From Candidatus Anderseniibacteriota bacterium (lineage in GTDB: Bacteria > Patescibacteriota > Andersenbacteria > UBA10190), in NCBI GenBank assembly GCA_040876835.1, contig JBBDOX010000014.1, forward strand, positions 1 to 60,583: a DNA stretch of 60,583 nt, in the 5' to 3' direction. Of this stretch, positions 21,028 through 53,996 are shown in pieces (positions within the stretch are counted from its first letter, which is position 1; every line of letters begins with the position of its first letter). The position numbers were made by a program, and so were the translations under genes. The notes beneath the pieces were generated by a model. That model saw nothing but the letters and a program-made list of their open reading frames with translations, searched no databases and was not told the DNA's origin.

Positions 21028-21057
21028 AAAAAATCCTTAGCACGGCGTACTAAGGAT
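21028..21057 (-). terminator. Intrinsic terminator of the minus-strand gene 21050-21589, abutting the fusA stop
   Basis: 8-bp stem atccttag/ctaaggat. A U-run occurs only on the minus strand (plus-strand A-run at 21028-21033). Confidence 0.55.
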
Positions 21058-21589
21058 CCGGAAGGTCTGAGCTCTCACCGTAGTAGGAGCCGACCCTGTT
21101 TTTTGGATGCCACGGACAGCTCTGCTCGATGGGATTGATGCACCACCACAAGTCTTCTCCGTTGGGGCATCGGATCTTGTCGGTGCCGGCAAAAGAGAAG
21201 CCAAGGGATCGCAAAACTTTCTTGTGCAGGAAAGATTCATCCTGTTCGACCAATCGAACGATGCAGGGCTTAAATTGGTACTGCCAAATGATCCAGCGGA
21301 TCAGTCGCGCAGTAGCAACTTCCTGAGGCTTGGTTGCGAAGATGGCGTTGGAGAACAGGAAGGGAATGAAGCACTCCTCCGGAGTGTCTTCAACGATTGC
21401 GGCGCTTACGATTTGCCGCCTCTGGGTCACTGCCAGACAGAGGTCTTCTACTCGCAGTGCGAACTCCACGTCTCCAAGTAGATCAGGAGCCGAGAATTCC
21501 ACTATCTCGCAGACCTTGTCGAAAGCACCCAACGCTGCAGCGCATGGCTTTACGTTCAACCCCTGAATTTTGCCAATGAACAGACTCAC
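21050..21589 (-). CDS. Hypothetical protein with weak GNAT-acetyltransferase-like secondary-structure pattern; G/C-ending codons
   Basis: GTG start preceded by GAGGAGG (21595-21601) at 5-nt spacing. C-terminal FLHKKVLRSLGFSFAG resembles a GNAT alpha4-beta6 segment; this is a low-confidence family call. Confidence 0.5.
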   Translation of the reverse strand: MSLFIGKIQGLNVKPCAAALGAFDKVCEIVEFSAPDLLGDVEFALRVEDLCLAVTQRRQIVSAAIVEDTPEECFIPFLFSNAIFATKPQEVATARLIRWIIWQYQFKPCIVRLVEQDESFLHKKVLRSLGFSFAGTDKIRCPNGEDLWWCINPIEQSCPWHPKNRVGSYYGESSDLPDP

Positions 21590-21714
21590 TTGAACCTCCT
21601 CATGTTCAGGACAGTGTAGAGGAAGGAGAAGGGGGATTCTTCTAGACGTGTTGTACTGTGAAGAAAGCAGTTTGGCAAGGCCTTGAAGCCGCCGGTGAGC
21701 TGGGTTAGGATTCT

Positions 21715-22116
21715 ATGATGTCCAAATATCCACTTCGTGATGAGCTTGTGCCAGCTTTGAATGTCCTTCGGCAGCTTGGAGGGTCGATTACCTTTGTGGG
21801 TGATGATGGTGAAGAGTATGTTATTGCCCGCAAGGCAGACATGGCAGCGGAGCAGGAAACGCAGCTCACACTCCCCTCGGCCTCGGCGGTATCGGCCGCT
21901 ATCCGCCGAAATGTTGATAATATAGAGGAGGATGTGCTGGAACGTATCAATCAGGATATTGCCTTGAGTGTCGGGCACGGAGAGGAAGACTTTGGTCACA
22001 TGAGCGAGGAAATGGATGAGGCCGGGGATGAAATGTTTGATGGTCCCACGCCTCCACCCATCCGAGTACGGTTCGAACCGTTAAGAGGAGATCTCTCGCC
22101 TGATCTTCAGGAATAG
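21715..22116 (+). CDS. Hypothetical strongly acidic protein; the N-terminus faintly resembles a Phd/YefM antitoxin fold
   Basis: 133-aa ORF divergent from 21050-21589. LRQLGGSITFVGDDGEEYVIARKAD followed by a D/E-rich tail. Confidence 0.45.
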   Translation: MMSKYPLRDELVPALNVLRQLGGSITFVGDDGEEYVIARKADMAAEQETQLTLPSASAVSAAIRRNVDNIEEDVLERINQDIALSVGHGEEDFGHMSEEMDEAGDEMFDGPTPPPIRVRFEPLRGDLSPDLQE

Positions 22117-22130
22117 GCAAAGCAATATTG

Positions 22131-22159
22131 TTGACGGGCGTATTTCTTTGTATTATAAA
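22131..22159 (+). promoter_or_regulatory. Dedicated tuf promoter
   Basis: TTGACG(22131-22136)-17 nt-TATAAA(22154-22159). Confidence 0.5.
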
Positions 22160-22254
22160 CAAGTAAACCTCAGGCGGTCTGTGTCTCAACTCTAAACAGA
22201 CTGGGTAAAACGCCGGAGAGGGTTTTATCATTATTAAATCAATAACTGAGCACT

Positions 22255-23448
22255 ATGGCTGAAAAGTTTGAACGATCAAAGCCGCATGTCAACGTGGGTA
22301 CGATTGGACACGTTGATCACGGTAAAACAACGCTGACGGCAGCTATCCTGTACGTCATGGGAATGAAGGGTGGAGCAAAGAAGGTAATGAAAGTCGATGA
22401 GATCGACTCGGCTCCTGAAGAAAAGGCGCGTGGTATTACTATTTCTACAACGCACTGTGAGTATGAATCTGAAAACCGACACTACGCTCACGTAGATTGT
22501 CCGGGACATGCTGATTACATTAAGAATATGATTACTGGTGCGGCCCAGATGGATGGAGCAATTATTGTTGTATCCGCCACCGATGGTCCGATGCCTCAGA
22601 CTCGAGAACACATCCTGCTTGCTCGCCAGATCGGCGTGCCAGCTTTAGTTGTCTTCCTGAATAAGGTAGATGCAGTGGATGATCCAGAGCTTGTTGATTT
22701 GGTTGAAGAAGAAGTTCGTGAACTTCTAACCAAGTACGAATATGACGGAGCAGCAGCTAAGGTTATCCGTGGCAGTGCTTTGAAAGCCCTGGATGCCAAG
22801 ACTCCAGAAGATGAAGCGGCTAAGCCAATCGTTGATCTGATTGCAGCTCTGGATGAAGCAATTCCAGAGCCAGTTCGTGAAACTGATAAGCCATTCTTGA
22901 TGCCAGTTGAAGACGTATTCTCAATCGAAGGTCGCGGTACAGTTGTAACCGGCCGCATTGAGCGCGGTATTGTAAAAGTTAACGATGAAATTGAAATCGT
23001 GGGACTGCGCGATATGCAGAAAACTGTTGTAACTGGAATCGAAATGTTTAACAAGCAGCTCGACCAGGGACAGGCCGGAGATAACGCAGGTGTACTGCTG
23101 CGAGGATTGAAGAAGGAAGACGTAGAGCGCGGACAGGTACTGGCTGCTCCAAAGTCAATCACCCCCCACAAAAAGTTTGAGTCTGAAGTGTACATCTTGA
23201 CCAAAGAAGAAGGTGGACGACACACTCCATTCTTCAAAGGGTACAAGCCTCAGTTCTATGTTCGAACTACTGATGTAACTGGTGAGGTTGAATTACCAGA
23301 AGGATCAGAGATGGTTATGCCTGGTGATACTGTGAGCCTTAAGGTCAGTCTGGGAGCTCCCGTAGCTATGGAAGACGGTATGCGCTTCGCGATTCGCGAA
23401 GGCGGTAGGACTGTTGGTGCGGGTGTTGTAGCGAAGATTATTGAGTAA
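22255..23448 (+). CDS. tuf: Elongation factor Tu
   Basis: [22 protein letters not shown]. Confidence 0.97.
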
Positions 23449-23472
23449 CTTACTCTAACTTCTGTACTTTGA

Positions 23473-23826
23473 ATGGCTACTAAGCAACAAACGAAAGAAA
23501 AGCAGGAAGAAGTGGCGCTGACACCACGCATTCGTATCAAGCTTAAAGCGTATGACCACAAGCTGGTTGACCAGTCTGCCAAGCAGATTCTGGATGCTGT
23601 TGAGCGCGACGGAGCGAAGGTGGCTGGCCCAGTTCCCCTGCCAACTTCGAAGAAAAAATATACAGTTAACCGATCAACGTTTGTACATAAGAATGCGCGT
23701 GATCAATATGAGATCCGGGTTCATAAGCGTTTGATTGACATCGTACAGACTACTTCGCGCACTGTTGATACTCTGATGAGTCTCAACCTGCCAGCTGGAG
23801 TTGATGTCTCGATGAAGATGACCTAA
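23473..23826 (+). CDS. rpsJ: 30S ribosomal protein uS10
   Basis: [21 protein letters not shown]; about 15-aa N-terminal extension. Confidence 0.95.
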
Positions 23827-23845
23827 AGCCAATACTCAATTGGTC

Positions 23846-23882
23846 AAAAGCAGCTCTCGTTTGCGGGAGCTGCTTTTGCTTT
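23846..23882 (+). terminator. Intrinsic terminator directly after rpsJ
   Basis: 11-bp stem aaaagcagctc/gagctgctttt followed by gcttt. Confidence 0.65.
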
Positions 23883-23949
23883 AGAGGTTCTGGTAGAGGT
23901 ATACAAAGGATAGGCGTATACGTGTCCTTTTGGGAAAGAAGGAAGCTAC

Positions 23950-24273
23950 ATGAACATGGTTGTTCGGGAACTGCTTCGCGAGTTGTGGCGGGTGCCTTAC
24001 GCACTGACTACCACCATCACAGAAGACCCCTGGGGGTACCTGTCTTGGCCGATGAAGATTACTACAGTTTGCCTCGGGTATCTTTTGAGGGGGTTGAGGT
24101 GGGTTGTGGTGATCTACGCCGCGCTGTTTTTCCTGGCAGTGTTTCCTCCGCCCGGCAGGCCGCTGGCAGCAATGCTGGCTGCACTGGTGATGCTTTGGAT
24201 AGTTGGCGTGGGGCTCCTGTTGAAGGCCGGGCTCACCGTGGAGCGGAAAAACCAACACAATCTCCGGGAATAA
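23950..24273 (+). CDS. Hypothetical small membrane protein (2 TM helices), GC-rich
   Basis: GAAGGAAG SD 4 nt upstream of the ATG and its own terminator. Chosen over the overlapping ORFs 23922-24335(+) and 23881-24258(-). Confidence 0.45.
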   Translation: MNMVVRELLRELWRVPYALTTTITEDPWGYLSWPMKITTVCLGYLLRGLRWVVVIYAALFFLAVFPPPGRPLAAMLAALVMLWIVGVGLLLKAGLTVERKNQHNLRE

Positions 24274-24283
24274 CCCCCCTTAC

Positions 24284-24306
24284 ACCGCCCCAAAAGGCGG
24301 TTTTTA
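24284..24306 (+). terminator. Intrinsic terminator after the small membrane ORF
   Basis: accgcc-ccaaaa-ggcggt followed by ttttt. Confidence 0.55.
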
Positions 24307-24307
24307 C

Positions 24308-24336
24308 TTGCGCTTTTTTTTGTTCTGTTTTATGAT
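24308..24336 (+). promoter_or_regulatory. Promoter for rplC and the downstream ribosomal protein genes
   Basis: TTGCGC(24308-24313)-17 nt-TATGAT(24331-24336); about 120-nt structured leader. Confidence 0.5.
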
Positions 24337-24461
24337 GCTTTATACCTGCAAACACCAAACGCAGGACGTTTAGACACTAAGTCTTTCAATGCAGAAAGAT
24401 TTTTCTTTATTCCTAATGGAGAACGTACCTCGAGTAATCGGGGAGACCGCTTCTTCTCAAT

Positions 24462-25079
24462 GTGATGAAAGTGCTGCTCGGGAGAAAAATTGGTATGTCA
24501 CAAGTGTTTGCGGAAAACGGCAAAGCCATTCCCGTAACCCTGATTGCGGCTGAGCCGAATACTGCTCTCATTCATCGCACGGAAGAAAAGGACGGGTATG
24601 CTGCTGTTCAACTCGCTTTACCTCGCAAAAAAGATGTAAAACAAGATGAAAAGAAGCAAACCCCTTCCGTCCTGAAGCGAATGTATGCTATGCGCAAGGA
24701 GTTCAAAGGAACGTTTACGGCTGAGCAATCCACCTTTACCGTTGAGCAGTTTGAGCCGGGTGATGTTGTTGAGGTTTCGGGCATGTCAAAAGGCAAAGGA
24801 TTTGCTGGTGTAGTAAAGCGTCACCACTTCAAAGGTGGACCAGCTAGCCATGGACATCGTCATGTGCTGCGTCGTCCAGGATCGATTGGAAGCCGTTTTC
24901 CTCAACATGTGTTAAAAGGAATGCGCATGGCTGGTCGCATGGGATATGATCGGGTGACGGTTAAGAACCTGACGATTGTAGCGGTTGATAAGGACAGAAA
25001 TCTGTTGGCAGTAAAAGGAGCGGTACCGGGAACAAAAGGTACGGTTCTTGAGATTCGTCAGGTAGAAGAAGCAAAGTAA
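24462..25079 (+). CDS. rplC: 50S ribosomal protein uL3
   Basis: GRKIGMSQVF, GKGFAGVVKRHHFKGGPASHG. Start is GTG 24462 or ATG 24465. Confidence 0.95.
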   Translation: MMKVLLGRKIGMSQVFAENGKAIPVTLIAAEPNTALIHRTEEKDGYAAVQLALPRKKDVKQDEKKQTPSVLKRMYAMRKEFKGTFTAEQSTFTVEQFEPGDVVEVSGMSKGKGFAGVVKRHHFKGGPASHGHRHVLRRPGSIGSRFPQHVLKGMRMAGRMGYDRVTVKNLTIVAVDKDRNLLAVKGAVPGTKGTVLEIRQVEEAK

Positions 25080-25080
25080 T

Positions 25081-25755
25081 ATGGCCTCAAAGTCTACAAA
25101 GAAAACCGCTGATAAGAATGCTGCTGACAAGCTGCCGGTTCACACCTTGGGCCAGAAAAAGGAAGGCTCAGCGGATGTTCCTGCGTTTATGCAAACGGTG
25201 GTCAGTCCGGAAGCTATCGCTCAGGTGATGCATGTTGCCCGCCGCCGGTCCCGGGTGCGTAGAGCGCATACCAAGGAGCGAGCTGAAGTGCGCGGCGGAG
25301 GCCGCAAGCCCTGGAAACAAAAAGGAACCGGTCGTTCTCGACACGGGTCCAGCCGTTCTCCGCTGTGGGTCGGTGGTGGTACAACCTTTGGTCCCCGAGC
25401 GCATAAGGAGCGTGTCCCAGTGACTCCTGTTAAAGAACGCGGCCGGGCTTTAGCCGGAGCATTTGCTCTGCACGTGCAGCAGGGGACGATGGCTCTGCTT
25501 AAGGTCAGCAAATTGCCGGAAAAAACGAAAGATTTTGTCGCTCAAGCTGAATATCCGTCTGGCCTTTTGATTGTTGTTGATGAAACACACAAAGCATTAT
25601 CTCGTGTAGCGCGTAACGTCACTGGTGTTCGAGTGATGAATGCCAATATTGTCATTGTCCGGGACCTGGTTGAAGCAAATCAGGTGTGGGTGGATGAAGA
25701 TGCCTTACCGGCGCTTCAGGCACGTACAAAATTTCATGTAGTATCAGCTGAATAA
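25081..25755 (+). CDS. rplD: 50S ribosomal protein uL4
   Basis: GGGRKPWKQKGTGRSRHGS. Confidence 0.95.
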   Translation: MASKSTKKTADKNAADKLPVHTLGQKKEGSADVPAFMQTVVSPEAIAQVMHVARRRSRVRRAHTKERAEVRGGGRKPWKQKGTGRSRHGSSRSPLWVGGGTTFGPRAHKERVPVTPVKERGRALAGAFALHVQQGTMALLKVSKLPEKTKDFVAQAEYPSGLLIVVDETHKALSRVARNVTGVRVMNANIVIVRDLVEANQVWVDEDALPALQARTKFHVVSAE

Positions 25756-25760
25756 CTCCT

Positions 25761-26162
25761 ATGTCACTTCTATCACTATCGAAAAAAATACTCTCCCGCG
25801 AAAAGGCTCAAAAAAGCACCGGGAAAACAACTGCCAAAAAGACTGTAAAGAATACCGAAAAGAAAAGTAAAAAGACTGACAAGACGGCTTCTGTTTTAGC
25901 TGGACGCCTGGGGATGAGCCCTGTTCTTAGTGAGAAGGGTATAAGATTGCAGGAGCAGAATCTGTTGGTTGTTCGAGTAAAGCCTTCGGCTACAAAGCAA
26001 CAGATTGCGCAGGCTATTGAAGAGGAGTTTGGTCAGAAGCCTCTATCTGTACGTACAGCCCGCATGAATCCGAAAACCCGCCGCCGGGGAATGTCTTCGG
26101 GACGGACCAATCACTGGAAGAAGGCGTACGTAAAGATGAAAGATATTAAGTCAATTATTTAG
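25761..26162 (+). CDS. rplW: 50S ribosomal protein uL23 with a Lys-rich N-terminal extension
   Basis: Operon position; core VVRVKPSATKQQIAQAIEEEFG. Confidence 0.9.
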   Translation: MSLLSLSKKILSREKAQKSTGKTTAKKTVKNTEKKSKKTDKTASVLAGRLGMSPVLSEKGIRLQEQNLLVVRVKPSATKQQIAQAIEEEFGQKPLSVRTARMNPKTRRRGMSSGRTNHWKKAYVKMKDIKSII

Positions 26163-26175
26163 CAGGACGTGTTAT

Positions 26176-27018
26176 ATGCCGATTAAGATATACAAAAAGA
26201 ATCGTGCGGCTCGTAAGAACGCTTCGATCGTTGATCGTTCCGAGCTGGCTGGAAAACCGGTCATTAAGTCTTTGCTGTACGGCCGCAGACGTATATCCGG
26301 ACGAGGATCAGCAGGAAAAATTACTACTCGTCACCGCGGTGGCGGAGCCAAGAAGCTATTCCGAACAATTGAGTTTGGCCAGCCGAAGCTTGGTGTTCCG
26401 GCTATGGTAGAACGACTAGAGTATGATCCAAACCGTTCAGCGCATATTGCTCTGCTGCTTTACAAAGATGGAGTGCGACAGTATGTGCTAGCGTGGGAGG
26501 GAATCAAAGTTGGACATGAAATACTAGTTCAGGAGCAGACTCCTGAAAAGCCAGGTAATCGAATGCAGTTGCAGCACATTACTCCGGGGTTGGAAGTCTT
26601 TAATGTCGAAATGCAGCCGGGTCGCGGCGGCAGACTGTTCCGCGCCGCCGGAACGTATGGAATTGTAATGGATATTCAGGGCGATTACGCACAGCTCAAG
26701 ATGCCTTCCGGTGAGGTTCGCTTGATTCCCAAGGGGGCCTATGCAACACTGGGCAAGACCAGTAATCCCGACCACCGGCTAGCACGGATCGGGTCGGCTG
26801 GGCGAAGTCGACGACTTGGTCGACGTCCTCAAGTACGCGGTAAGGTAATGAACCCCGTTGACCATCCTCATGGCGGAGGTGAAGGAGCTCAGCCGATTGG
26901 TTTGAAGCACCCGAAAACGAAGTGGGGTAAACCAGCCCTAGGCGTAAAAACGCGTCGTGCTGGCAAATATTCCGATCGTCTTATTTTACAACGTCGTTCA
27001 TCTAAGAAACGAAGCTAA
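26176..27018 (+). CDS. rplB: 50S ribosomal protein uL2
   Basis: [16 protein letters not shown]. Confidence 0.97.
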
Positions 27019-27023
27019 CACCT

Positions 27024-27329
27024 ATGGCACGATCACTAAAGAAAGAACCGTATATCGACCCTAAGCTGCTCAAAAAAGTGCAGAAGCTTAAGAGTGGAGA
27101 CCGTACGGTTATTAAGACCTGGTCACGCAGATCTACGATTTTCCCGGAAATGGTGGGCTTTCGCTTTGGGGTACATAATGGCCGGGAACATATTCAAGTT
27201 ATTGTTACAGAGGATATGGTTGGGCATAAGCTCGGTGAATTTTCTCCTACCCGTAAATTTGTCCGGCATGGTGGTCGACTGCAGAAAGAAGCAGAAGCTG
27301 CAGCTGCCGCTGGAACTACTTCGAAGTAA
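27024..27329 (+). CDS. rpsS: 30S ribosomal protein uS19
   Basis: [26 protein letters not shown]. Confidence 0.95.
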
Positions 27330-27332
27330 TAT

Positions 27333-27941
27333 ATGAAAGTACGCGCTACACATCGAAATGCCCGCATGGCTCCTCGGAAAATCCGTCCGATGGCGCGTAT
27401 GCTGCGCAACATGCCTGTTGCGGCGGCTCAGAATCAGCTGATGTTTATGCCTGGCAAGGGAGCTGACATTGTGCTGGAAACTTTAAAAAGCGCAGTGGCT
27501 AATGCTACGCATAATCACCAGCTGGACCAGGATAGTTTAACTATTGCCGAAATTCGAATTGATGAAGGGTTGGTCATGAAGCGCTGGCAACCGATCGCTA
27601 AGGGAATGGCTCACCCACTTTTAAAGCGCAATTCTCACGTCACTGTTATTGTTGAAGGAAAAGAAGCAGCTAAAAAAGCTAGTGCTGTCAAAAAACAGGC
27701 TAAGGTTGAAACTGTTTCGGCTGATGAGTATGTAAAGCAGGAAGCCAAAGCCCAGGCAGATGAAAAGAAAGAGCAGGAAAAAGCCCAGAAAGGGACGGAA
27801 GACGAGAAAAATCCGGTAGAGGATGGACGTGACGTGAATGCAGTTAAAGGTAAGAAGGAACACGAAGCATTTCAAAAAATGAAGGCGCTGCAACAGGGTG
27901 GTGACAAGAAGAAGACGCATCGTCGTAAGAGCATTGGCTAA
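27333..27941 (+). CDS. rplV: 50S ribosomal protein uL22 with a roughly 90-aa Lys/Glu-rich C-terminal extension
   Basis: MKVRATHRNARMAPRKIRPMARMLRNM; 202 aa, against about 110 aa typical. Confidence 0.93.
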   Translation: MKVRATHRNARMAPRKIRPMARMLRNMPVAAAQNQLMFMPGKGADIVLETLKSAVANATHNHQLDQDSLTIAEIRIDEGLVMKRWQPIAKGMAHPLLKRNSHVTVIVEGKEAAKKASAVKKQAKVETVSADEYVKQEAKAQADEKKEQEKAQKGTEDEKNPVEDGRDVNAVKGKKEHEAFQKMKALQQGGDKKKTHRRKSIG

Positions 27942-27955
27942 TTAAGAACATACCT

Positions 27956-28747
27956 ATGGGACGTAAAACAAATCCAAAGATACTCCGAGTCGGCAATATT
28001 ACCCACAACTGGGACGCGCGTTGGTTTGCTGACAAGGCGGGAGATTTCCGGCAGAAACTACTGCAGGATCTTCGTATCCGCCGCTATCTCAGTAAAGAAA
28101 TGCGCCAGGCTTCTATCTCCCGTGTGGAAATAGCCCGTCAGCCTCGTGAGACTGTCCTAACGATTCACTCTTCCCGTCCGGCAGTTGTTATTGGTCGCGG
28201 AGGATCTGGTATTGAAAAGATTCAAAAAGACCTCAAGCAGATTCTAGGTCCTCAGATCAGAGTTCGAATTAATGTTCAGGAAATTTCCAATCCAGATACT
28301 GATGCTGCGGCCGTGGCCACCCAGGTTATTGATCAGATCGAACGCCGTATGCCATTTCGTCGTATTCTCAAGCAGACAATTCAACGCTCTATGCAAGCTG
28401 GTGCTAAGGGAGTTCGTATCGCTCTGGCTGGCCGCTTGAACGGTGCAGAAATTGCGCGCACAGAATGGCTTTCGGAAGGAAATGTGCCGCTGCATACATT
28501 CCGAGCTGATATTTCATATGCTAACAAGACTGCCTTTACCACCTACGGCACCATTGGTGTAAAGGTCTGGATTAACCGTGGGGAGCTATCGGACAGTGAA
28601 GAGACGCAGGAATCTAAGGTAGTTGAATCTCGGCAGGCGCGCAGACCAGCTGCTGCTCGTCGTCGCAACTCCTTGGCTGAAAAGGTGAACGCGGCTAAGC
28701 CGGCAGCAAATACGCGAACAAAGAACACTACTAAGAAAAGTAAGTAG
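27956..28747 (+). CDS. rpsC: 30S ribosomal protein uS3
   Basis: [13 protein letters not shown]; KH motif [10 protein letters not shown]. Confidence 0.95.
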
Positions 28748-28752
28748 TCAGT

Positions 28753-29166
28753 ATGTTAATTCCACGCAAAGTTAAACATCGCAAACACCAGAAGGGGCGC
28801 GTCCACGGAGTCTCCAAAGGTGCTTTGACGGTTGATTTCGGCCAGTACGGTCTCAAAGCGATGGAGTCTCGTTGGGTAAGTGCTCGTCAGATTGAGGCAG
28901 CACGACGGGCGATGACACGCTATGCCAAGCGTAGCGGTAAGATTTGGATTCGAGTGTTTCCTGATAAGCCAATCACCAAGAAGGGTGCTGAGGTACCCAT
29001 GGGTAAAGGTAAGGGAGCAGTTGATCATTTCGTTGCTCCAGTGCATCGCGGACGCATTCTTTTCGAGATTGACGGAGTTGATGAAACGACCGCTCGTGAG
29101 GCTTTGCGGCTAGCGGCTCATAAAATGCCGATGAAGACAAGTTTTATAAAACGAGATCAGGCCTAA
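28753..29166 (+). CDS. rplP: 50S ribosomal protein uL16
   Basis: [16 protein letters not shown]. Confidence 0.95.
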
Positions 29167-29167
29167 T

Positions 29168-29365
29168 ATGAAATACGAAGAAATAACTCAATTATCTCCC
29201 ACTGAACTTCAGGCTCGTCTGCATGAGAGTCAGTCTTTGTATTACGCCATGAAGGATGAGGTACTTTCGGGTAAAGAGGGGAATTACAAGAAACTTAGCG
29301 CCTTAAAGAAGGACATTGCTCGGCTTCAGACTGCTTTAAAGTCTCAACCGCAATCGGCAGAGTAA
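29168..29365 (+). CDS. rpmC: 50S ribosomal protein uL29
   Basis: 65 aa, located between rplP and rpsQ; helical ELQARLHESQSLYYAMK. Confidence 0.9.
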   Translation: MKYEEITQLSPTELQARLHESQSLYYAMKDEVLSGKEGNYKKLSALKKDIARLQTALKSQPQSAE

Positions 29366-29403
29366 TTTGCAAAAACTGCCAATCTTTAGCATAATCACCA
29401 CTT

Positions 29404-29694
29404 ATGACCGTAACAGACACAAATTCAGTAGCTAAGAAACGCCAGGTAGAAGGCGTGGTTGTGCGACGTTCTGGAGCCAAGACAATAAGTGTTCAGACAG
29501 CAACTACGATCCGGCACCCTCTTTATCGTAAGAGCATGAAGCGCACTAAGCGATACCTGGTTCATGACCCTAAAGAACAGGCAGCCGCCGGAGACACGGT
29601 TATTATCCGTGAAGCTCGCCCGCTATCAGCTCGCAAACGCTGGGTGCTGGTCTCTATTTCTCACAAGGCAAGCGTTGATACCAGCGAGGTATAA
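29404..29694 (+). CDS. rpsQ: 30S ribosomal protein uS17
   Basis: GVVVRRSGAKTISV...YLVHDPKEQAAAGDTVIIREARPLSARKRW. Confidence 0.93.
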   Translation: MTVTDTNSVAKKRQVEGVVVRRSGAKTISVQTATTIRHPLYRKSMKRTKRYLVHDPKEQAAAGDTVIIREARPLSARKRWVLVSISHKASVDTSEV

Positions 29695-29706
29695 AGAAGA
29701 CTGCAT

Positions 29707-30078
29707 ATGATTCACGAACGAAGCATGATAACGGTAGCGGATAACTCAGGAGCCAAACTCCTGCAGGTCATTCGTGTTCTCGGAAATACCGGCCGCCGCT
29801 ATGCATACATTGGCGATATTGTGGTTGCCAGCGTTAAAGTTGCTGAACCTCGCGGCACAGTCAAAAAGAGTGAAGTAGTGCGGGCAGTTGTTGTTCGAGC
29901 TCGTAAAGAGCAGAAGCGAGAAGACGGGTCAGCGATTCGCTTTGATGATAATGCGGCCGTAATTGTGAACAAGGAATCAAAAGAGCCGGTGGCGACCCGC
30001 GTGTTCGGACCCATTGCCCGGGAGGTACGTAATCGTGGTTTTCAAAAAATTGTATCTTTAGCTCCCGAAGTTTGGTAA
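29707..30078 (+). CDS. rplN: 50S ribosomal protein uL14
   Basis: [17 protein letters not shown]. Confidence 0.95.
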
Positions 30079-30084
30079 CTCTAT

Positions 30085-30414
30085 ATGACGAACCTGATTC
30101 CAAAACTGAAGATCAAGCGAGGCGATACCGTGCGAGTGCTTACTGGCAAAGACCGAGGCAAGCAGGGTAAGGTATTGGCGACTTTGCCGATGCGAGAACG
30201 TGTGGTCATTGAGGGCATAAATATGGTGAAAAAGCACGTACGGGCACGTAAGGCTGGAGAAAAAGGTCAGCGCGTGAGTGTAGCTGCGCCTATCCATATT
30301 TCTAACGTACAGCTGATTGATCCACAGACTAAAAAAGGTACACGTATTGGGATTACACGCGAGAATAACAAACGACAGCGTGTAGCCCGTGCGTCGGGAG
30401 AGATAATCGACTAA
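30085..30414 (+). CDS. rplX: 50S ribosomal protein uL24
   Basis: KOW motif IKRGDTVRVLTGKDRGKQGKV. Confidence 0.93.
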   Translation: MTNLIPKLKIKRGDTVRVLTGKDRGKQGKVLATLPMRERVVIEGINMVKKHVRARKAGEKGQRVSVAAPIHISNVQLIDPQTKKGTRIGITRENNKRQRVARASGEIID

Positions 30415-30424
30415 CAGTACTGAT

Positions 30425-31012
30425 ATGAGCAGATTTGAAGACATATACAAGAAACTGATGAGTCAGATGAACATTGATAATGTTCATGCGGTGCCAGCTA
30501 TTACCAAAGTGGTAGTAAGTGTTGGTGTCGGAAAAAATCGTGATAACAAGCAATACATTGAAGCAGTTGAGCGCGATGTGGCTGCCATTACCGGACAGAA
30601 ACCACACCAGCGTTTGGCTCGTAAAGCGATTGCCGGATTTAATGTTCGGGAGGGAAACCTTGTTGGATATCGGGTAACGCTACGAGGAAAGCGCATGGAA
30701 GACTTTATTCAGCGTTTTGTAAATATCACGCTACCCCGTGTACGTGATTTTCGTGGACTGAAATCGTCCGGTATTGATAGGCAGGGGAACCTTAGTGTTG
30801 GCCTGCGGGAGCACCTAGCTTTCCCAGAAATTCATACTGAAAAGACCGATGTTATCTTCGGAGTCGAGGTAACCTTTGTAACTTCTGCGACTACTGAAGC
30901 TGAAGGCAGAGAACTCTTTGTTGCCCTCGGGTTCCCGTTCCAGGGAGAAGATGAGGCGGAAGAGCTGGATTTGATTGTACCGGGACGCAAAAAAGAACAG
31001 GCAAAAGCTTGA
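30425..31012 (+). CDS. rplE: 50S ribosomal protein uL5
   Basis: Operon position; GFNVREGNLVGYRVTLRGKRMEDF. Confidence 0.93.
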   Translation: MSRFEDIYKKLMSQMNIDNVHAVPAITKVVVSVGVGKNRDNKQYIEAVERDVAAITGQKPHQRLARKAIAGFNVREGNLVGYRVTLRGKRMEDFIQRFVNITLPRVRDFRGLKSSGIDRQGNLSVGLREHLAFPEIHTEKTDVIFGVEVTFVTSATTEAEGRELFVALGFPFQGEDEAEELDLIVPGRKKEQAKA

Positions 31013-31047
31013 TTATTCCCTGATTTAAAGTATTCTGTAACTTCATT

Positions 31048-31233
31048 ATGGCTAAGAAATCACAAATCGCTCGGGCAGCCAAGAAGCCGAAATTCTCCAC
31101 TCGGATTGTGCGGCGCTGCCAACTTTGCGGTCGTCCCCGGGGTTATCTACGCGATTTTGGATTATGTCGTATTTGTTTTAGAGAAAACGCCGAGGAAGGC
31201 AATATTCCCGGCATTCGTAAATCATCTTGGTAA
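31048..31233 (+). CDS. rpsZ: 30S ribosomal protein uS14, zinc-binding (type Z)
   Basis: 61 aa; [20 protein letters not shown]. Confidence 0.93.
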
Positions 31234-31234
31234 T

Positions 31235-31618: not shown

Positions 31619-31623
31619 TTCCT

Positions 31624-32169: not shown

Positions 32170-32171
32170 TT

Positions 32172-32504: not shown

Positions 32505-32513
32505 ATTACACCT

Positions 32514-33011: not shown

Positions 33012-33016
33012 TTGCT

Positions 33017-42868: not shown

Positions 42869-42869
42869 T

Positions 42870-47082: not shown

Positions 47083-48162
47083 TCATTTCAACTTCTCAAT
47101 TTTCACTCCAACTAACCGTAAGAGTTCATGCTGGGGGTTTTCACGACTATCAAAGAAAGGAAGTAATAACTGCAAGGTTCGTGTGCGTAACGTTGCTGCA
47201 TCTGCGGTTGGTTGAGCTAGTGTTGTCTGCCGAGAGCGGGTGGTAAAATTTGAAAAACGGGCAGTAATACCAAGTGTGCGAAATGATTTGAAGCCGTCTT
47301 CGTGTAAGCGTTCGATTAAATAGTCACAGATGGAGAACATCTGGGGGATTAAGATACTAGCCTCCAAGGTGTCTTCACGTAATGTAATTTGCTCACTTAT
47401 GGATTTAGCGCGTGAATATTCGTACAGAGGAGAGGCATCGATACCGCGTACTTTGTTATAGAGATCACTACCCCATTTACCTAACAGGCTTTCTAGTTCC
47501 TCTGCCCCATACTGCTGCGCATCAGCTACGGTGCGAATATCGCACCGAGCTAGAAGCAGTTGTGTTTTCGGACCGACTCCGGGGATGGCGCGAATAGAAA
47601 GAGGCGCAAGGCGCGCTTGTGCCTCTGCTTCAGTGATTATTACCAGCCCATCAGGCTTATTCATGTCGGAACCTATCTTGGCTACCAGTTTGTTTGGTCC
47701 AATACCCACAGAGCACGTGAGCTGTTCTTTTTCATAAATTGCCTGCTTTATCTGCTTGGCAGTATTCTCCGCCGTTAATAGCGATCGGTGATTAGAGAGA
47801 TCAAAATATGCCTCATCCACACTGCGCTGCTGCATAGTAGGAGTGTGCTGCTTTATAACTTCCATGATTGATTTGGAAATTCGGCTGTATGTTTGAAAGC
47901 TTCCGGGCAAAAATACAGCCGCGGGCTTTCCCTGTTGTAATGCATATTGCGACAGACGCCACGCTTTGGTTATAGCCATAGCAGAATGAATGCCGTATTC
48001 GCGGGCTTTGTAGTTGGCAGTGGAAACGACTCCTCGTCCACGACCTTCTCGGGGGTCGGACCCTACGACGATCGGCATACCGGAAAACTGCGGATTATTC
48101 CGTTCTTCAATGGCTGCAAAGAATGCATCCATGTCTAGATGTCCGATGATTCGTGAAGGCAT
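47083..48162 (-). CDS. dinB: DNA polymerase IV (Y-family)
   Basis: IIGHLDMDAFFAAIEE, SVDEAYFDL. The ORF opens at TTG 48201; ATG 48162 is preferred. Confidence 0.9.
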   Translation of the reverse strand: MPSRIIGHLDMDAFFAAIEERNNPQFSGMPIVVGSDPREGRGRGVVSTANYKAREYGIHSAMAITKAWRLSQYALQQGKPAAVFLPGSFQTYSRISKSIMEVIKQHTPTMQQRSVDEAYFDLSNHRSLLTAENTAKQIKQAIYEKEQLTCSVGIGPNKLVAKIGSDMNKPDGLVIITEAEAQARLAPLSIRAIPGVGPKTQLLLARCDIRTVADAQQYGAEELESLLGKWGSDLYNKVRGIDASPLYEYSRAKSISEQITLREDTLEASILIPQMFSICDYLIERLHEDGFKSFRTLGITARFSNFTTRSRQTTLAQPTADAATLRTRTLQLLLPFFDSRENPQHELLRLVGVKIEKLK

Positions 48163-48290
48163 GTTCGTGTTTAGTTCTAGTATACCTCTTTCCTCAAACA
48201 ACGGGTATGGAAGTCTTTTGCCGTACCGCCCTAAACCCTATGTATACGCATATATATAAAGTATTCGAGGTGTAGTGGTATACTGAATCC

Positions 48291-51778: not shown

Positions 51779-51821
51779 TACCGTAAGGGGTGGTTATGAT
51801 ATGCTGTTTGTATAAGCACTA

Positions 51822-52361
51822 ATGAATTGTTCTATGGCGCGTAAAAACTCATTTATTACACATGATTGGGGAACGATAATTACTATTGTAGTAGGATTAT
51901 TGTTAGTTTTTGGAGCAGTTGTATTTTACCCTTACGAGGGAGCAGTTGCTGATAACGAATATACTCAAGAACATTACGTCTCCTGGCTTACCTTTATTGC
52001 GGGGTTCTTTATCGTCGGAGTAGGAGGATGTATACATGCGCTTCGTAGAGCAGGTTTAGCTACAAGTAAAACGAATGTCGATGTTGTTCTTTTGAGTAAG
52101 CGGGCATCCGCTGTTCTTGGAGGAGTAGTGGTGAGTATGCTCGTATCAAAAGGGCTGCACGTATTGCTTGCCGAAGCTGGTCTTCTGGAAGAGCGGTTTA
52201 TAAGCGCCTTTATATTTCTTGGTCTTCCTTTATTAATCCATTATGTAGGGTTCCGGTTTGCTTTGAAAAAGAAATACCTTTGGTTTGGCATGGCTTTTGT
52301 GCTTACGTACTTAGCCTGGCTTGCATATGGATTTGGTAGTGTCATACAGAGCTTGTCCTAA
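51822..52361 (+). CDS. Hypothetical membrane protein (about 5 TM helices)
   Basis: Hydrophobic 179-aa ORF; no motif recognised. Confidence 0.5.
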   Translation: MNCSMARKNSFITHDWGTIITIVVGLLLVFGAVVFYPYEGAVADNEYTQEHYVSWLTFIAGFFIVGVGGCIHALRRAGLATSKTNVDVVLLSKRASAVLGGVVVSMLVSKGLHVLLAEAGLLEERFISAFIFLGLPLLIHYVGFRFALKKKYLWFGMAFVLTYLAWLAYGFGSVIQSLS

Positions 52362-52769
52362 GTGTCAGATATACAAGCCATACTGCATACTGACGGAGGC
52401 GCGCGCGGCAATCCAGGACCGGCAGGAATTGGATATGTTTTGGTTATTGAAGATGATGCCAAAATTGAACATGGAGAATACATTGGTGAGAAAACAAACA
52501 ACTACGCGGAGTATATGGCCCTTATTAAAGGACTAGAGCGAGCTCATCAAGAGAAAGTGACAGACATTAAATGTTATCTGGATAGTGAGTTGGTGGTTAA
52601 ACAACTGAAGGGTCAGTATCGGGTTAAGCATCCGGATTTAAAGCCGCTGTTTGAACAGGTAAAAGAGGTGGCCGAAGATTTTAATACAATTTCATATACA
52701 CATATTCCACGAGCCAAGAACAAGGGAGCGGATAAGCTGGTGAACTGGGCGCTGGATAAGGCGAAATAA
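52362..52769 (+). CDS. rnhA: Ribonuclease HI
   Basis: LHTDGGARGNPGPAGIGYVL, NNYAEYMALIKGLE, PRAKNKGADKL; GTG start. Confidence 0.85.
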   Translation: MSDIQAILHTDGGARGNPGPAGIGYVLVIEDDAKIEHGEYIGEKTNNYAEYMALIKGLERAHQEKVTDIKCYLDSELVVKQLKGQYRVKHPDLKPLFEQVKEVAEDFNTISYTHIPRAKNKGADKLVNWALDKAK

Positions 52770-52789
52770 AAAACGGCCTGGCAGACAGC

Positions 52790-53278
52790 TCAGGCTTGTT
52801 CGCGGGAAAAGCTTTTGTGGAGCTCTTCCTGAATAGCAGTGTGCAGCTTCTCTGCCAGGTATTCGATGAGAACATCGGGCCTGACAGTCACTTTCCGAAA
52901 GCGAGGATCTCGAAACATGAGGTTGAAACCTTCGCTTTCATGCCCCCGGACGTCCGTACGGAACAGAATGACCGGCTTGCCAAGGTTCAATGCCGCTTCC
53001 GCTTCGAGAGCAGTGCCGTCATCGGCGATGGGACCGTCGAAGTTGGCGACCAGGACGTCGCTCCTCTCAATCTCCGACCGGCAGGTTTGCCATACGAGAT
53101 CTGGATCCTGCGGTGCACCCAAGCTTTGGGGGAGATGGACCGTGTAGGAATGGATAGTCTGCAGAGCTTTCTTCAGATCGCAGTTGAAGCGTTGATCAGC
53201 CATTCCAAAGAGTGGACCTGCCAAGTAAACACGCGTCTGCGGCTCGTGGACCCCATTCATCCCGAAGATGGTCTGCAT
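52790..53278 (-). CDS. Nucleoside 2-deoxyribosyltransferase-like protein; G/C-ending codons
   Basis: VYLAGPLF ... SDVLVANFDGPIADDGTALEAEAALNLGKPVILFRTD matches the family pattern. Confidence 0.6.
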   Translation of the reverse strand: MQTIFGMNGVHEPQTRVYLAGPLFGMADQRFNCDLKKALQTIHSYTVHLPQSLGAPQDPDLVWQTCRSEIERSDVLVANFDGPIADDGTALEAEAALNLGKPVILFRTDVRGHESEGFNLMFRDPRFRKVTVRPDVLIEYLAEKLHTAIQEELHKSFSREQA

Positions 53279-53408
53279 GTTAAAGGTGCCTCTTCTTTGC
53301 TGTTGTGGTGATAACAGAAGAGCATTACATCATACTCTTCTATTAATTAATCTATCAAGGATTTGAGTGTAAATGAAAAAGCACGCACAGCCTTGGCTGT
53401 AAACGTGC

Positions 53409-53996
53409 CTAGATTCTATTCCATGCGACGTAGGAGGGAATTGCTCCTCCCAACTCCCACGTCTGGAAGATTTTCATTCCGCGGCACCAAAGCTGCGTGG
53501 AGTTAGGACAGCACTCGATGCCACGTGTTTCCACGTGGACCACAGTGCCACCGAGCTTTTCCCATGCCCAATGGACACGGGGCACGTGATCGGTATAGCC
53601 AACTAAGCTAGCTTCCGTACCCCACTCGTGTTGAACGCAGACCTCCTTAGCGTGCTTAAGCGAATCTGCCGAGTGGTAGTGGATTCCCTCCACTTTCTCA
53701 TTCGGCCCAGGTAGATACACCACCTGATCCATGTTCACGGTCCCGAGATCGCGGATCGCTTCGTACACTTCCTTCTGAGCAATGATTGGCTTGCCCGTTG
53801 CCTGATGCAACTCAGCAGCTGCACGAGCAATCTGTTTGTTACTCCTGCCCGGCTCTCCGTTGGGGCCGATGCCAAACGTAAGAGCGATGATCACATCAGC
53901 CCTCTTTGCCTTATACAGGCTGTACGGAGGTGTATAGATGTACCAGCGCCACCAGTACTGTGGCACAAGAACAAGCCTATGCGGTTGAAAGGACAT
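53409..53996 (-). CDS. Hypothetical protein, DUF218/YdcF-like pattern; G/C-ending codons
   Basis: GGAGGAG SD (53999-54005). ADVIIALTFG...ARAAAELHQATGKPIIAQ ... LVGYTDHVPRVHWAWEKLG resembles DUF218; this is a low-confidence family call. Confidence 0.5.
   Translation of the reverse strand: MSFQPHRLVLVPQYWWRWYIYTPPYSLYKAKRADVIIALTFGIGPNGEPGRSNKQIARAAAELHQATGKPIIAQKEVYEAIRDLGTVNMDQVVYLPGPNEKVEGIHYHSADSLKHAKEVCVQHEWGTEASLVGYTDHVPRVHWAWEKLGGTVVHVETRGIECCPNSTQLWCRGMKIFQTWELGGAIPSYVAWNRI

Follow-up and report, generated by a model that had tools for sequence, protein, structure and literature searches.

Two translation-initiation and codon-usage regimes side by side in the genome of a CPR/Patescibacteria-like bacterium

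The window, the whole 60,583-nucleotide stretch of DNA analyzed here, derives from the 1.02-Mb genome of a CPR/Patescibacteria-like sediment bacterium in which uL30 is absent, and contains 73 genes, 63 on the plus and 10 on the minus strand. A preliminary description had set apart five of these genes, said to carry Shine–Dalgarno (SD) elements and G/C-ending codons, from host genes poor in SD elements. Using a custom ORF and codon-score caller, in which starts were picked without upstream information, we determined that these five focal genes are the top five of the window by GC3, within the 92nd–97th percentiles of the genome (the next gene has a GC3 of 0.554; Mann–Whitney p = 7e-8, 73 genes). 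When the −20 to −4 region was scored for pairing to the 16S rRNA tail, with cut-offs of −6 and −8 kcal/mol, all five reached −6 kcal/mol compared to 7/68 other window genes (Fisher p = 5e-5), and 3/5 compared to 2/68 reached −8 kcal/mol. Overlapping multi-frame ORFs run across the focal genes, as had been noted. In line with the preliminary description, no integrase or transposase family was matched among the 27 window proteins scanned, and no flanking repeats of note were found in the window. A further ORF in a GC-rich stretch, 54169–54528(−), was rejected as spurious because it overlaps the RNase P RNA gene.

The first focal gene (21050–21589, minus strand; GC3 0.63, 92nd percentile) encodes a 179-aa GNAT-fold acetyltransferase-like protein and forms an insertion that separates fusA from a small conserved gene preceding tuf. 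Its SD, GAGGAGG (21595–21601, minus; −12.7 kcal/mol), lies 5 nt upstream of a GTG start, and a terminator-like hairpin at its 3′ end (21031–21059, minus), a 13-pair stem followed by TTTTCTT, sits in the convergent gap with fusA. The core of the AlphaFold model has a pLDDT of 70–86, and 8/8 Foldseek PDB matches at E ≤ 0.001 were acetyltransferases, those with a named family being GNAT. For comparison, we made use of partial sequences of a sister species of the same genus (G001, 804 kb) and of a member of the same family with 43% GC (G016, 799 kb). A positional orthologue is present in G001 (36% identity, GC3 0.67, SD AAGGAG) and a remote one in G005; G016, G009 and G004 have no insert at this slot, and the profile was found in 3/41 genomes of the order.

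Within the S10 operon, a 107-aa hydrophobic (membrane-like) ORFan (23950–24273, plus strand; GC3 0.70, 97th percentile) is inserted between rpsJ and rplC, 4 nt downstream of the SD-like GAAGGAAG (23938–23945, plus; −9.5 kcal/mol). It is separated from rpsJ by a terminator-like hairpin (23845–23878, plus; inverted repeat with 15-nt arms, then a T-run) and directly followed, still inside the operon, by a second one with TTTTT (24284–24301, plus). No family was found for this protein in Pfam, PHROGs or NCBIfam. In G001, the same slot harbors a non-homologous 148-aa hydrophobic (membrane-like) ORF (GC3 0.71, SD AAAGGAGG), and in G005 and G019 it is occupied by other ORFs preceded by an SD. The slot has no content in G009, the 474-bp gap in G004 holds no convincing ORF, and in G016 the aligned portions of rpsJ and rplC are separated by 233 bp.

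The third focal gene (41163–41957, minus strand; GC3 0.68, 96th percentile) is an ORFan of 212–264 aa with an uncertain start (41957, 41945, 41858 or 41801). Its SD is ambiguous: in the longest ORF, the motif GGAGAT falls within the opening codons, and the only start it could act on is the third ATG (41945). The protein had no match in 40 relatives and no family in Pfam, PHROGs or NCBIfam, and its Atlas model is poor and uninformative.

The remaining two focal genes lie close together on the minus strand. The first of them (52790–53278, minus; GC3 0.64) encodes a 162-aa nucleoside 2-deoxyribosyltransferase-like protein (Pfam PF05014, E = 1.3e-14; PHROG nucleoside deoxyribosyltransferase, 8.9e-10), with a moderate SD-like AAGAGG (53289–53294, minus; 10-nt spacer, −6.7 kcal/mol); the public annotation places the start six codons further in, without an SD. 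A search of 1.84 billion representatives gave a best relative with 46% identity, and the nearest relatives in 185,579 species genomes do not exceed this value; of the 419 relatives there, the best 80 belong to Planctomycetota, Cyanobacteriota, Bacteroidota and other groups, and none of these 80 is from Patescibacteria. In a tree with 80 named relatives, the protein has a very long branch of 2.65 substitutions per site. The second (53409–53996, minus; GC3 0.62, 92nd percentile) encodes a 195-aa DUF218 (YdcF/SanA)-like protein. Upstream of its ATG lie GGAGGAG (53999–54005, minus; −9.3 kcal/mol) and, 76 nt upstream of the gene, the −35-like hexamer TTGACG (54067–54072, minus); just past the stop follows a strong hairpin with a T-run (53376–53408, minus; MFE of the 70 downstream nt −17.1 kcal/mol, stem in the first 28 nt, then TTTTT). 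A word-indexed search of 5.8 billion proteins returned a single other homologue, at 69% identity. ESM Atlas look-alikes are DUF218-type clusters (features 0.94–0.95, structure TM 0.7–0.83), some of them from CPR lineages, and among the 40 relatives 39 gave no match and none a convincing one.

Thus, the SD elements ascribed to the five genes are clear in three, moderate in the deoxyribosyltransferase-like gene and ambiguous in the ORFan at 41163–41957. Terminator-like hairpins follow the same three genes with clear SDs, and four of the five genes are indeed on the minus strand; the claims that each stands alone and that four are antisense to the surrounding genes fail for 41163–41957, which closes a minus-strand block of four genes. 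The collinear G016 region has none of the five. Taken together, these results support the view that the five focal genes belong to a compositionally and architecturally distinct, non-core class.

The SD-poor state of the host genes was borne out genome-wide, as 19.0% of 994 starts reached −6 kcal/mol compared to 20.9% of 4083 internal ATGs. In the bulk, which comprises ∼90% of genes and makes no use of SD pairing, the frequency was 119/885, lower than in the internal-ATG controls. Bulk starts are preceded by an A-rich stretch with T (U) at −1 in 55–60%. Moreover, TAnnnT ends at −7 in 16% of 471 bulk operon-first genes, compared to ∼3% at other offsets and 0/98 in the G/C-ending class described below. 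This −10 box often has the extended form TGnTAnnnT (extended TG in 44/118, −35 TTGAC in only 4/118), and its location exactly at −12 to −7 implies leaderless mRNAs for a sizeable share of operon-first genes. In the window, this regime is exemplified by tuf, rpsJ and rplC through rplO (22255–33466, plus strand), which lack an SD, mostly carry T at −1, show a GC3 of 0.36–0.51, and whose orthologues are collinear in G016. The 16S rRNA 3′ end is canonical (...GGATCACCTCCTTTCT), and the anti-SD is intact although the bulk genes lack SD pairing.

The GC3 histogram of the genome shows a main mode at 0.47 and a flat shoulder from 0.56 to 0.80. With a threshold of GC3 ≥ 0.60, the minor class amounts to 99/998 genes (∼10%), some of which may be spurious ORFs given the simple custom caller. 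Among the 97 with sufficient upstream sequence, 68 reach −6 kcal/mol compared to 119/885 bulk genes (odds ratio 15, p = 7e-32), whereas only 29–31% of internal-ATG controls within the class do so. SD core and start are most often 5–8 nt apart in the class (50/69 genes), and the distribution of this spacer is flat in the bulk; upstream of class genes, G reaches 42–49% from −12 to −8, and C 45% at −1. No INTERMEDIATES was seen: SDs are rarest (9%) among genes with GC3 0.50–0.58. TTGACA within −150 to −15 occurs in 32/97 class compared to 46/851 bulk genes (p = 3e-14; reverse-complement control 8/97 and 33/851), 60–150 nt upstream, as is the case for the hexamer of the DUF218-like gene, with a −10 box ∼17 nt further on. 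TAA stops are used in 18/99 class versus 463/899 bulk genes, and cysteine makes up 1.4% versus 0.5%. The class members are mostly single genes in intergenic slots (68 runs of length 1, 14 of length 2 and 1 of length 3), and 19/55 are antisense to two co-oriented neighbors compared to 89/598 in the bulk (p = 5e-4). The resulting autonomous cassette consists of a canonical sigma-70 promoter (TTGACA, ∼17 nt and TAnnnT), a 30–100-nt leader, an SD 5–8 nt from the start, C at −1, G/C-ending codons, a TAG or TGA stop and a hairpin terminator.

Such a pattern could in principle arise from chimeric joins, contaminating reads or spurious ORFs, such as antisense frames whose third position mirrors the sense first position. 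Besides the rejected ORF over the RNase P RNA gene, the acetyltransferase-like gene offers grounds for this concern, as the host-trained model places its coding score in the bottom percentile and a competing ORF on the plus strand (21107–21481) shares its third/first-position register. However, its protein is conserved in two other genomes with a predicted GNAT fold, the SD, spacer, promoter and terminator signals of the class are positioned relative to called starts and stops, and 12/20 of the largest class genes match Pfam families, transporters, DHODH, aminotransferase and transposase among them. Independent Logan contigs of 16.6 kb and 6.5 kb, the latter spanning rpsJ, the ORFan and rplC, cross from core through insert to core with 0 differences and even depth (10.7–12), and a second sample yielded identical pieces of both core and inserts, which excludes a chimeric assembly for the two slots tested. 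The same pattern also occurs in three separately assembled genomes: in G001, 78% of genes with GC3 ≥ 0.65 (n = 27) have an SD compared to 14–15% in the bulk; in G016, 54% of the top 5% by GC3 (n = 37) do so, compared to 12–17% in the three bins of lowest GC3 (588 genes) and 22–33% in the two that directly precede the top group; and TTGACA is enriched in the class of both. An artefact is thus largely refuted and highly improbable, and the observation itself is real and genome-wide.

How the class arose is less clear-cut. The preliminary description invoked separate acquisitions from higher-GC donors, and distinct, patchy, non-core insertions are what we found. One form of this proposal, several recent and independent transfers from SD-using donors with codon usage and SDs as unameliorated relics, agrees with the outlier composition of the class, whose GC1/GC2/GC3 pattern matches a genome of ∼59% GC, and with its GC-richer flanks (upstream 0.484 versus 0.434, downstream 0.518 versus 0.443). 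Class genes are absent from most relatives (tblastn matches in G016 for 7/63 and 8/47, compared to 52–68% of bulk genes), 6/22 resolvable slots are empty in G001, and Planctomycetota MAGs are the top named matches for two class genes. In contrast, no donor was found: even in libraries of billions of proteins, the class genes searched have closest relatives of 42–69% identity, and wide searches with six class proteins gave none above 69%.

Moreover, synteny holds genome-wide for 12/13 of the high-GC3 genes that form reciprocal best hits with G001, namely the acetyltransferase-like gene and 11 others, with a GC3 of 0.57–0.79. At four-fold sites these pairs are 0.338 identical compared to 0.273 expected at saturation (bulk pairs, 0.354 compared to 0.251), yet their GC4 remains 0.68 and 0.63, and the SDs are retained as well. 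Many class members are therefore old residents whose composition has not converged on that of the host; such retention at near-saturated sites is at odds with a foreign signature that decays passively, and the signature is more than a relic of recent transfer. The absence of SD-bearing intermediates at GC3 0.50–0.58 points the same way, and the AT-rich promoters of host-adapted look, with a perfect TTGACA in one third of class genes, are more uniform than diverse donors would predict. We accordingly regard a purely recent origin as quite unlikely.

The same retention raises the possibility of a lineage-intrinsic, actively maintained accessory regulon, with composition and signals held by selection or biased gene conversion. 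In addition to the syntenic pairs and the uniform promoter type, homologues occupy 11/22 resolvable G001 slots, and three class genes keep GC3 z-scores of 3.5–6.0 in the 43%-GC genome of G016, two of them, csrA and C16:95003, with a clear SD. CsrA binds GGA in SD regions. Since the transcriptome is otherwise SD-free, CsrA could see only class mRNAs and would, in a concrete version of this model, switch the whole class on or off. Consistent with it, csrA (G000:C16:70364-70591; Pfam 1.8e-25) is itself a class member with SD AGGAGG and a GC3 of 0.79, 0.74 and 0.60 across three genomes, CsrA is near-universal in the order (18/19 in f1, 5/5 in f2) compared to 40/401 phylum genomes, and GGA occurs 0.72 versus 0.16 times per gene in −16 to −1 of class and bulk. 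However, hardly any enrichment is seen for a second GGA further upstream (O/E 1.16), FliW was looked for and not found, no CsrB-like RNA is present in the window at Rfam gathering thresholds, and G249 has CsrA yet no SD class in 400 kb. Most class genes are also unshared within the genus (reciprocal best hits in G001 for 11/63 and 11/47, 17–23%, compared to 55–63% of the bulk), and their functions are heterogeneous. Several families are clearly patchy or xenologous: strong matches to the PF07399 antiporter occur in just 3/401 genomes of the phylum and in 0/19 from the bacterium's own taxonomic family, and the DHODH and aminotransferase are just 24–26% identical to low-GC3, SD-less (host-type) G016 genes. 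Finally, codon choice is opposite to that of ribosomal-protein genes and hence not host-optimal, and genes directly next to class genes have an ordinary GC3, contrary to a regional mutation or conversion effect. An intrinsic regulon of this kind therefore appears improbable.

Overall, these results lead us to favor, with some reservation, a model in which two gene-expression architectures exist side by side and the focal genes belong to the minor one as horizontally acquired, self-sufficient cassettes; its acquisition component is partly supported. In this scenario of acquired cassettes, class genes would have entered the genome by horizontal acquisition and may have persisted because each comes with the full set of signals that its expression requires, while a host ribosome that still reads SDs would allow their GC-rich, more structured 5′ ends to be translated. 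The SD-led cargo of the fusA/tuf and rpsJ/rplC slots varies between genera. Mobility genes are few, with one DDE transposase and no integrase among the 20 largest members of the class; the genome encodes ComEC (11742–14056), which makes DNA uptake plausible.

Genes were called with our own open reading frame and codon-log-odds caller, and 998 genes with a coding density of 89% were predicted in the Candidatus Anderseniibacteriota genome (G000; 18 contigs, 1.02 Mb, about 48.5% GC, completeness rated 100%), whose contig C14 is the entire window. Starts were chosen by coding score and start-codon type, and upstream sequence was never used. The strength of the Shine-Dalgarno (SD) interaction was calculated as the ViennaRNA duplex energy of positions -20 to -4 with the 16S rRNA tail, using internal in-frame ATGs as control. 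The 3' end of the 16S rRNA is canonical, GGATCACCTCCTTTCT, and an anti-SD is present in G000.

According to the preliminary description, two regimes of translation initiation and codon usage coexist in the window, five SD-bearing genes with G/C-ending codons standing apart from the host genes: focal genes 1 (21050-21589(-)), 2 (53409-53996(-)), 3 (23950-24273(+)), 4 (52790-53278(-)) and 5 (41163-41957(-)). Scoring of third-position GC (GC3) and of pairing with the 16S 3' end confirmed this split in the window and extended it to the whole genome, from which the focal genes deviate significantly. Their GC3 values (0.62-0.70) are the top five among the 73 genes of the window, the rest reaching at most 0.554, and fall at the 92nd-97th percentile of the genome; SD pairing of -6 kcal/mol or better precedes 5/5 focal genes vs 7/68 other window genes. 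At the same threshold, all G000 starts taken together show no excess over internal ATGs (19.0% vs 20.9%). This genome-wide average conceals two gene populations. The GC3 distribution peaks at 0.47, its main mode, with a flat shoulder extending over 0.56-0.80, and SDs follow it: they occur at 9-18% of starts and 19-23% of internal ATGs in the three bins below GC3 0.58 (885 genes), at 60% and 29%, respectively, between 0.58 and 0.65 (47 genes), and at 71% and 31% at 0.65 and above (62 genes). Among G000 genes binned by GC3, no SD-bearing intermediates were found at 0.50-0.58. Hereafter, the mostly SD-led minority with GC3 of at least 0.60 (99 of the 998 called genes) is called the class, and the remaining, SD-poor genes the bulk. 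Of the 69 class genes with an SD core, 50 have it at a distance of 5-8 nt from the start, whereas spacing in the bulk is evenly spread. In the same vein, class genes show a textbook SD in their upstream profile, with 42-49% G at -12 to -8, whereas that of the bulk, internal genes included, lacks G enrichment (SD at 9-18% of starts, at or below control).

A chimeric contig join is contradicted at the two slots tested, both of which are bridged by independent Logan contigs of the likely source run: one of 16.6 kb spans fusA, focal gene 1 and tuf, and one of 6.5 kb spans rpsJ, focal gene 3 and rplC, both evenly covered at a depth of 10.7-12 and with 0 differences. Identical low-depth pieces of core and inserts were also present in a second sample. 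Moreover, the same split is found in the sister species of the same genus (G001) and in a member of the same family (G016), both assembled separately from G000. Pfam families were matched by 12 of the 20 largest class genes and include two Na+/H+ antiporters, EamA, aminotransferase, dihydroorotate dehydrogenase (DHODH), AIR-synthase-like, HD, RNR small chain, sigma-70 and DDE transposase.

Class and host genes are distinct in all layers of expression, namely promoter type, leader, SD, base -1, codons, stop and terminator. In G000, base -1 of bulk genes is T in about 54-60% of cases, in operon-first and internal genes alike, whereas in the class it is C in 45%. A T at this position may reflect an extended contact between start codon and initiator tRNA. 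It is also seen at bulk starts of relatives (57% in G016, about 50% in G034), and within the ribosomal-protein operons ...CCT ATG is frequent, window examples of T at -1 being the starts at 25761, 27024, 27956 and 32514. Among bulk operon-first genes, 16% have an upstream TAnnnT motif whose last base is at -7 and 11% one whose last base is at -8, compared to about 3% at other offsets, and the proportion at -7 is 16-17% across three genomes. These start-proximal -10 boxes are preceded by TG in 44 of 118 cases and by a -35 TTGAC in just 4 of 118. As far as promoter positions can be predicted, this placement is the geometry of leaderless transcription as in GeneMarkS-2 group C. By comparison, none of 98 class genes carries a TAnnnT box at the leaderless position, and a perfect TTGACA occurs 15-150 nt upstream of 32/97 class genes vs 46/851 bulk genes (p = 3e-14), usually followed by about 17 nt, a -10 box and a predicted leader of 30-100 nt.

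Class genes also have more structured 5' ends (-12.7 vs -8.2 kcal/mol in the bulk), stronger downstream hairpins (-14.4 vs -10.7) and fewer TAA stops (18/99 vs 463/899), and the cysteine content of their proteins is nearly three times that of the bulk. They mostly stand alone (runs of one, two and three class genes number 68, 14 and 1, respectively), and 19/55 vs 89/598 genes lie antisense to two co-oriented neighbours. Since class codon choice runs opposite to that of the ribosomal-protein genes, which shift toward T-ending codons, usage of the host-optimal codons of highly expressed genes was ruled out. A regional GC or gene-conversion effect was likewise ruled out, given the ordinary GC3 of adjacent genes.

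The focal genes themselves are of mixed character. Focal gene 1 encodes a GNAT-fold protein: the eight Foldseek hits with E <= 0.001 are acetyltransferases without exception, and those with a named family are GNAT. TM-scores are low, at just 0.37-0.47, because the model falls below pLDDT 50 for 75 of 179 residues, the core reaching 70-86. No Pfam or NCBIfam family was found for it at E <= 0.01, hence no match to a GNAT profile or acetyl-CoA motif. A positional orthologue was found in G001 (36% identity), and a remote one in the relative G005; conservation and the GNAT fold of the product ruled out an antisense-frame artefact for this gene. Focal gene 4 matches PF05014 (54.8 bits vs a cut-off of 28.8) and is nucleoside 2-deoxyribosyltransferase (NDT)-like, focal gene 2 is DUF218-like by Atlas features and structure with a poor AlphaFold model (mean pLDDT 51), focal gene 3 is a small hydrophobic (membrane-like) ORFan, and focal gene 5 is an ORFan of uncertain start for which the Atlas returned nothing usable. 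Focal genes 1, 2, 3 and 5 have no match in PHROGs or NCBIfam, and the sole PHROG match is to the NDT family; a phage origin was thus ruled out. Public and alternative starts disagree for two of the five.

Several neighbouring features of the window deserve mention. An RNase P RNA of class A (54096-54515(+), 193 bits) partly explains the GC-rich stretch beside focal gene 2, and the ORF at 54169-54528(-) is spurious because this RNA gene lies there. Between fusA and tuf, 21715-22116(+) encodes a small acidic protein of 133 amino acids with host-type composition and no known family, whose position is kept in G001, G016 and four further relatives (G004, G005, G009 and G019). DNA polymerase IV (DinB; 47083-48201(-), GC3 0.44) and a polyprenyl-phosphate-transporter-like gene (40240-41094(-), GC3 0.47) are antisense or non-core, lack an SD and have no match in the G016 region; because both have host-type GC3 and no SD, variable genes do not all belong to the class. 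An outlier of the opposite kind is 56196-58838(+), encoding 880 amino acids at low GC (GC3 0.35, 1st percentile) with a low coding score and a G016 homologue at a different locus. Finally, 7324-8148(+) encodes bacterial TSP3 calcium-binding repeats with very low GC3 (0.36) and high GC2 (0.54).

The preliminary description further proposed that the five genes were acquired separately from higher-GC donors. This proposal is partly supported. The GC3 deviation, a patchy distribution and the status of the focal genes as insertions relative to syntenic relatives speak for it; a missing donor, the lack of amelioration and the lack of linkage to mobility genes, tRNAs or repeats speak against it, and its simple form is disfavoured by the missing donor and the persistence of the class. 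Comparisons with relatives used partly fetched genomes (804 kb of G001; 799 kb of G016, 43% GC, whose copy lacks about 65 kb). The window is collinear with G016 over 17257-56109, and all five focal genes are missing from G016 there; in the slot 52769-54685, G016 instead carries another gene, SD-led and GC-richer. In five additional genomes, the gaps fusA/tuf and rpsJ/rplC vary by genus, some having nothing there and others unrelated SD-led cargo. Genome-wide, homologues in G016 were found for 11-17% of class genes vs 52-68% of the bulk. Strong matches to the antiporter family PF07399 occur in 3 of 401 genomes of the phylum and in 0 of 19 of the taxonomic family to which G000 belongs, with metagenomic relatives of 45-48% identity only, and the SD-led DHODH and aminotransferase of G000 are just 24-26% identical to host-type G016 genes. 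Genes at 144-16683, which have no G016 matches, were rejected as an accessory block since they are core genes (HisRS, FtsA, FtsZ and ComEC among them), and their absence from G016 is uninformative because of the roughly 65 kb lacking from its copy. ComEC, encoded at 11742-14056(+) as two overlapping ORFs (Competence domain, then metallo-beta-lactamase domain), would provide a plausible DNA-uptake route.

Wide protein searches did not identify a donor for the class genes, the best identities being 69%, 62-64%, 46% and 42%, and the best matches with names belong to Planctomycetota, Myxococcota and other CPR. In its tree, the NDT-like protein has a branch of length 2.65 and falls among Planctomycetota, Myxococcota, Cyanobacteriota and others; a single-sequence scan of genome contigs with this protein gave no match, while an eight-row alignment query did find relatives. 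That neither integrase nor flanking repeats are visible, as first described, was borne out by the repeat scan, which found no inverted or direct repeats of note around the focal genes, and by the family scans, in which no integrase family matched the proteins scanned (window proteins and the largest class genes). The mobility genes among the 20 largest class genes amount to one DDE transposase. The single tRNA of the window, at 16826-16897, is not adjacent to a focal gene.

Compositionally deviant, putatively transferred genes are reportedly covered by the amelioration framework of Lawrence and Ochman, whose regression coefficients linking GC1, GC2 and GC3 to genomic GC, said to date from 1997, were used here. 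In the amelioration test, syntenic orthologues did not decay toward host composition, which sets the class apart from this framework, the shared orthologues remaining unameliorated at saturated synonymous sites. Between G000 class genes of GC3 >= 0.62 and G001, 12 of 13 reciprocal best hits are syntenic. In the bin of GC3 >= 0.65, the 11 G000-G001 pairs have a median protein identity of 40% vs 77% in the modal bin of the bulk, and 73% of the G001 partners have an SD. At conserved residues, G000 and G001 agree at 35.4% of four-fold sites in the bulk vs 25.1% at saturation, and at 33.8% in class pairs vs 27.3% at saturation; GC at four-fold sites of the class pairs is nonetheless 0.68 and 0.63. 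Three class genes retain GC3 z-scores of 3.5-6.0 in G016. Where flanks could be resolved in G001 (22 class slots; a further 61 lack resolvable flanks), the slot holds a homologue in 11 cases, a non-homologous gene of high GC3 in 2 and other genes in 3, and is empty in 6. Because a passive relic would have decayed, and because SD-bearing intermediates are missing at GC3 0.50-0.58, either some process maintains the class signature or the genes are renewed time and again. At least 12 class members have persisted in this state in two species with nearly turned-over synonymous sites.

One reading of a maintained state involves CsrA. The csrA gene, located outside the window (G000:C16:70364-70591(-), PF02599, E = 1.8e-25), is itself a class gene with the SD AGGAGG and GC3 of 0.79, 0.74 and 0.60 in three genomes. 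CsrA was detected in 18/19 and 5/5 sampled genomes of two families of the order, f1 and f2, and in 40/401 genomes across the phylum; it is near-universal in family f5 too, with up to four matches per genome in relatives. CsrA/RsmA proteins bind GGA motifs that overlap the SD. At the SD, GGA occurs 0.72 times per class gene vs 0.16 in the bulk, and in an otherwise SD-free transcriptome the class would constitute the sole possible targets of CsrA. Upstream GGA in class leaders is weakly elevated (O/E 1.16), with at least two GGA in -90..-1 in 62% vs 42% in shuffles.

On this basis, the class could represent a second expression system that this CPR order maintains stably, rather than decaying foreign DNA, with CsrA as gatekeeper and with SD and GC3 upheld by selection or biased gene conversion, a proposal that we regard as rather improbable. 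Under such a scheme, leadered SD mRNAs would be chemically marked against a leaderless and SD-free native transcriptome, the class-encoded CsrA would act as a translation-level gatekeeper for a fast-evolving accessory set, in analogy to xenogeneic silencing, and selection for addressability, or biased gene conversion among frequently exchanged genes, would hold SD and GC3 at a high level while synonymous sites diverge to saturation. As in CsrA/RsmA regulons, a canonical csrA is conserved in the order and its potential targets, the SD leaders, appear confined to the class. In contrast to such regulons, FliW was not found in the G000 genome, no CsrB/RsmZ-type small RNA was detected in the window (Rfam at gathering thresholds, RNase P RNA being the sole match), and a second GGA is not clearly enriched.

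The class may be compared with the atypical genes of GeneMarkS-2, which, according to PMC6028130, average 8-9% per genome and are frequently lower in GC. Like these, it is a minority of about 10% with deviant GC3 and codons, shorter, non-core, patchy and placed between conserved neighbours. Unlike these, it deviates upward in GC, and promoter type, leader, SD, base -1 and stop codons also differ from the bulk. The same source assigns prevalent leaderless transcription to group C (Actinobacteria, Deinococcus-Thermus), in which first-in-operon genes have a Pribnow box at a distance of about 10 nt from their start and the remaining genes use an RBS, weak signals to group X, and SD-independent initiation of the Bacteroidota type to group B (PMC6028130). 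The G000 bulk resembles group C, as described there, in its fixed-distance -10 box (TAnnnT ending at -7), but differs in that internal bulk genes lack an SD, which is confined to the atypical class.

In Bacteroidota, SD-independent initiation goes along with a retained anti-SD and an A-rich upstream stretch. G000 likewise combines a canonical anti-SD in its 16S rRNA with an A-rich upstream region and no SD enrichment at native starts; in contrast, it belongs to another phylum and shows a pronounced preference for U at -1 (54-60%), a presumed leaderless component and a sizeable coexisting SD-led class. With integron cassettes and tRNA-linked islands, the class units share the form of single-ORF accessory units in recurrent slots. 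However, they lack attC-like or flanking repeats and an adjacent integrase, and they lie scattered as single units, each preceded by a predicted promoter of its own, rather than as promoterless cassettes in an array.

Compositional outliers are routinely taken as recent transfers heading for amelioration, whereas the G000 class persists. It thus offers a natural system for the expression of SD-dependent genes in an SD-independent, presumably partly leaderless bacterium, for asking what protects foreign-type signals from erosion, and for testing whether acquired genes can be addressed collectively by a CsrA-type regulator. In this lineage, the presence of an SD is a cheap marker of non-core genes, and gene finders with a single start model would misplace starts in one population or the other. 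In 400-kb samples of two genomes from other families (G034, 36% GC; G249, 60% GC), bulk starts also lack SDs and no clear SD class was found. SD-poor initiation may, judging from these start regions, be widespread in the phylum; a literature search turned up no account of Patescibacteria with leaderless or SD-poor initiation.

As regards the organism, uL30 is absent from G000 (whole genome checked), rpsE abutting rplO in the window (32514-33466), and bL9 is encoded. Following the CPR criteria of PMC9297842, G000 is of CPR/Patescibacteria type, outside the bL9-less groups, and is, by its gene content, a member of the CPR lineages that keep bL9. Genome sizes of relatives across the phylum span 0.6-2.0 Mb and are nearly always below 1.5 Mb, and the sequencing runs containing the window DNA are sediment metagenomes only. 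On contig C8 of G000 (C8:1-3278), a sigma-70 family gene (C8:2019-2975, GC3 0.61) and a tRNA-Ile lie within 1.5 kb downstream of the 16S rRNA gene.
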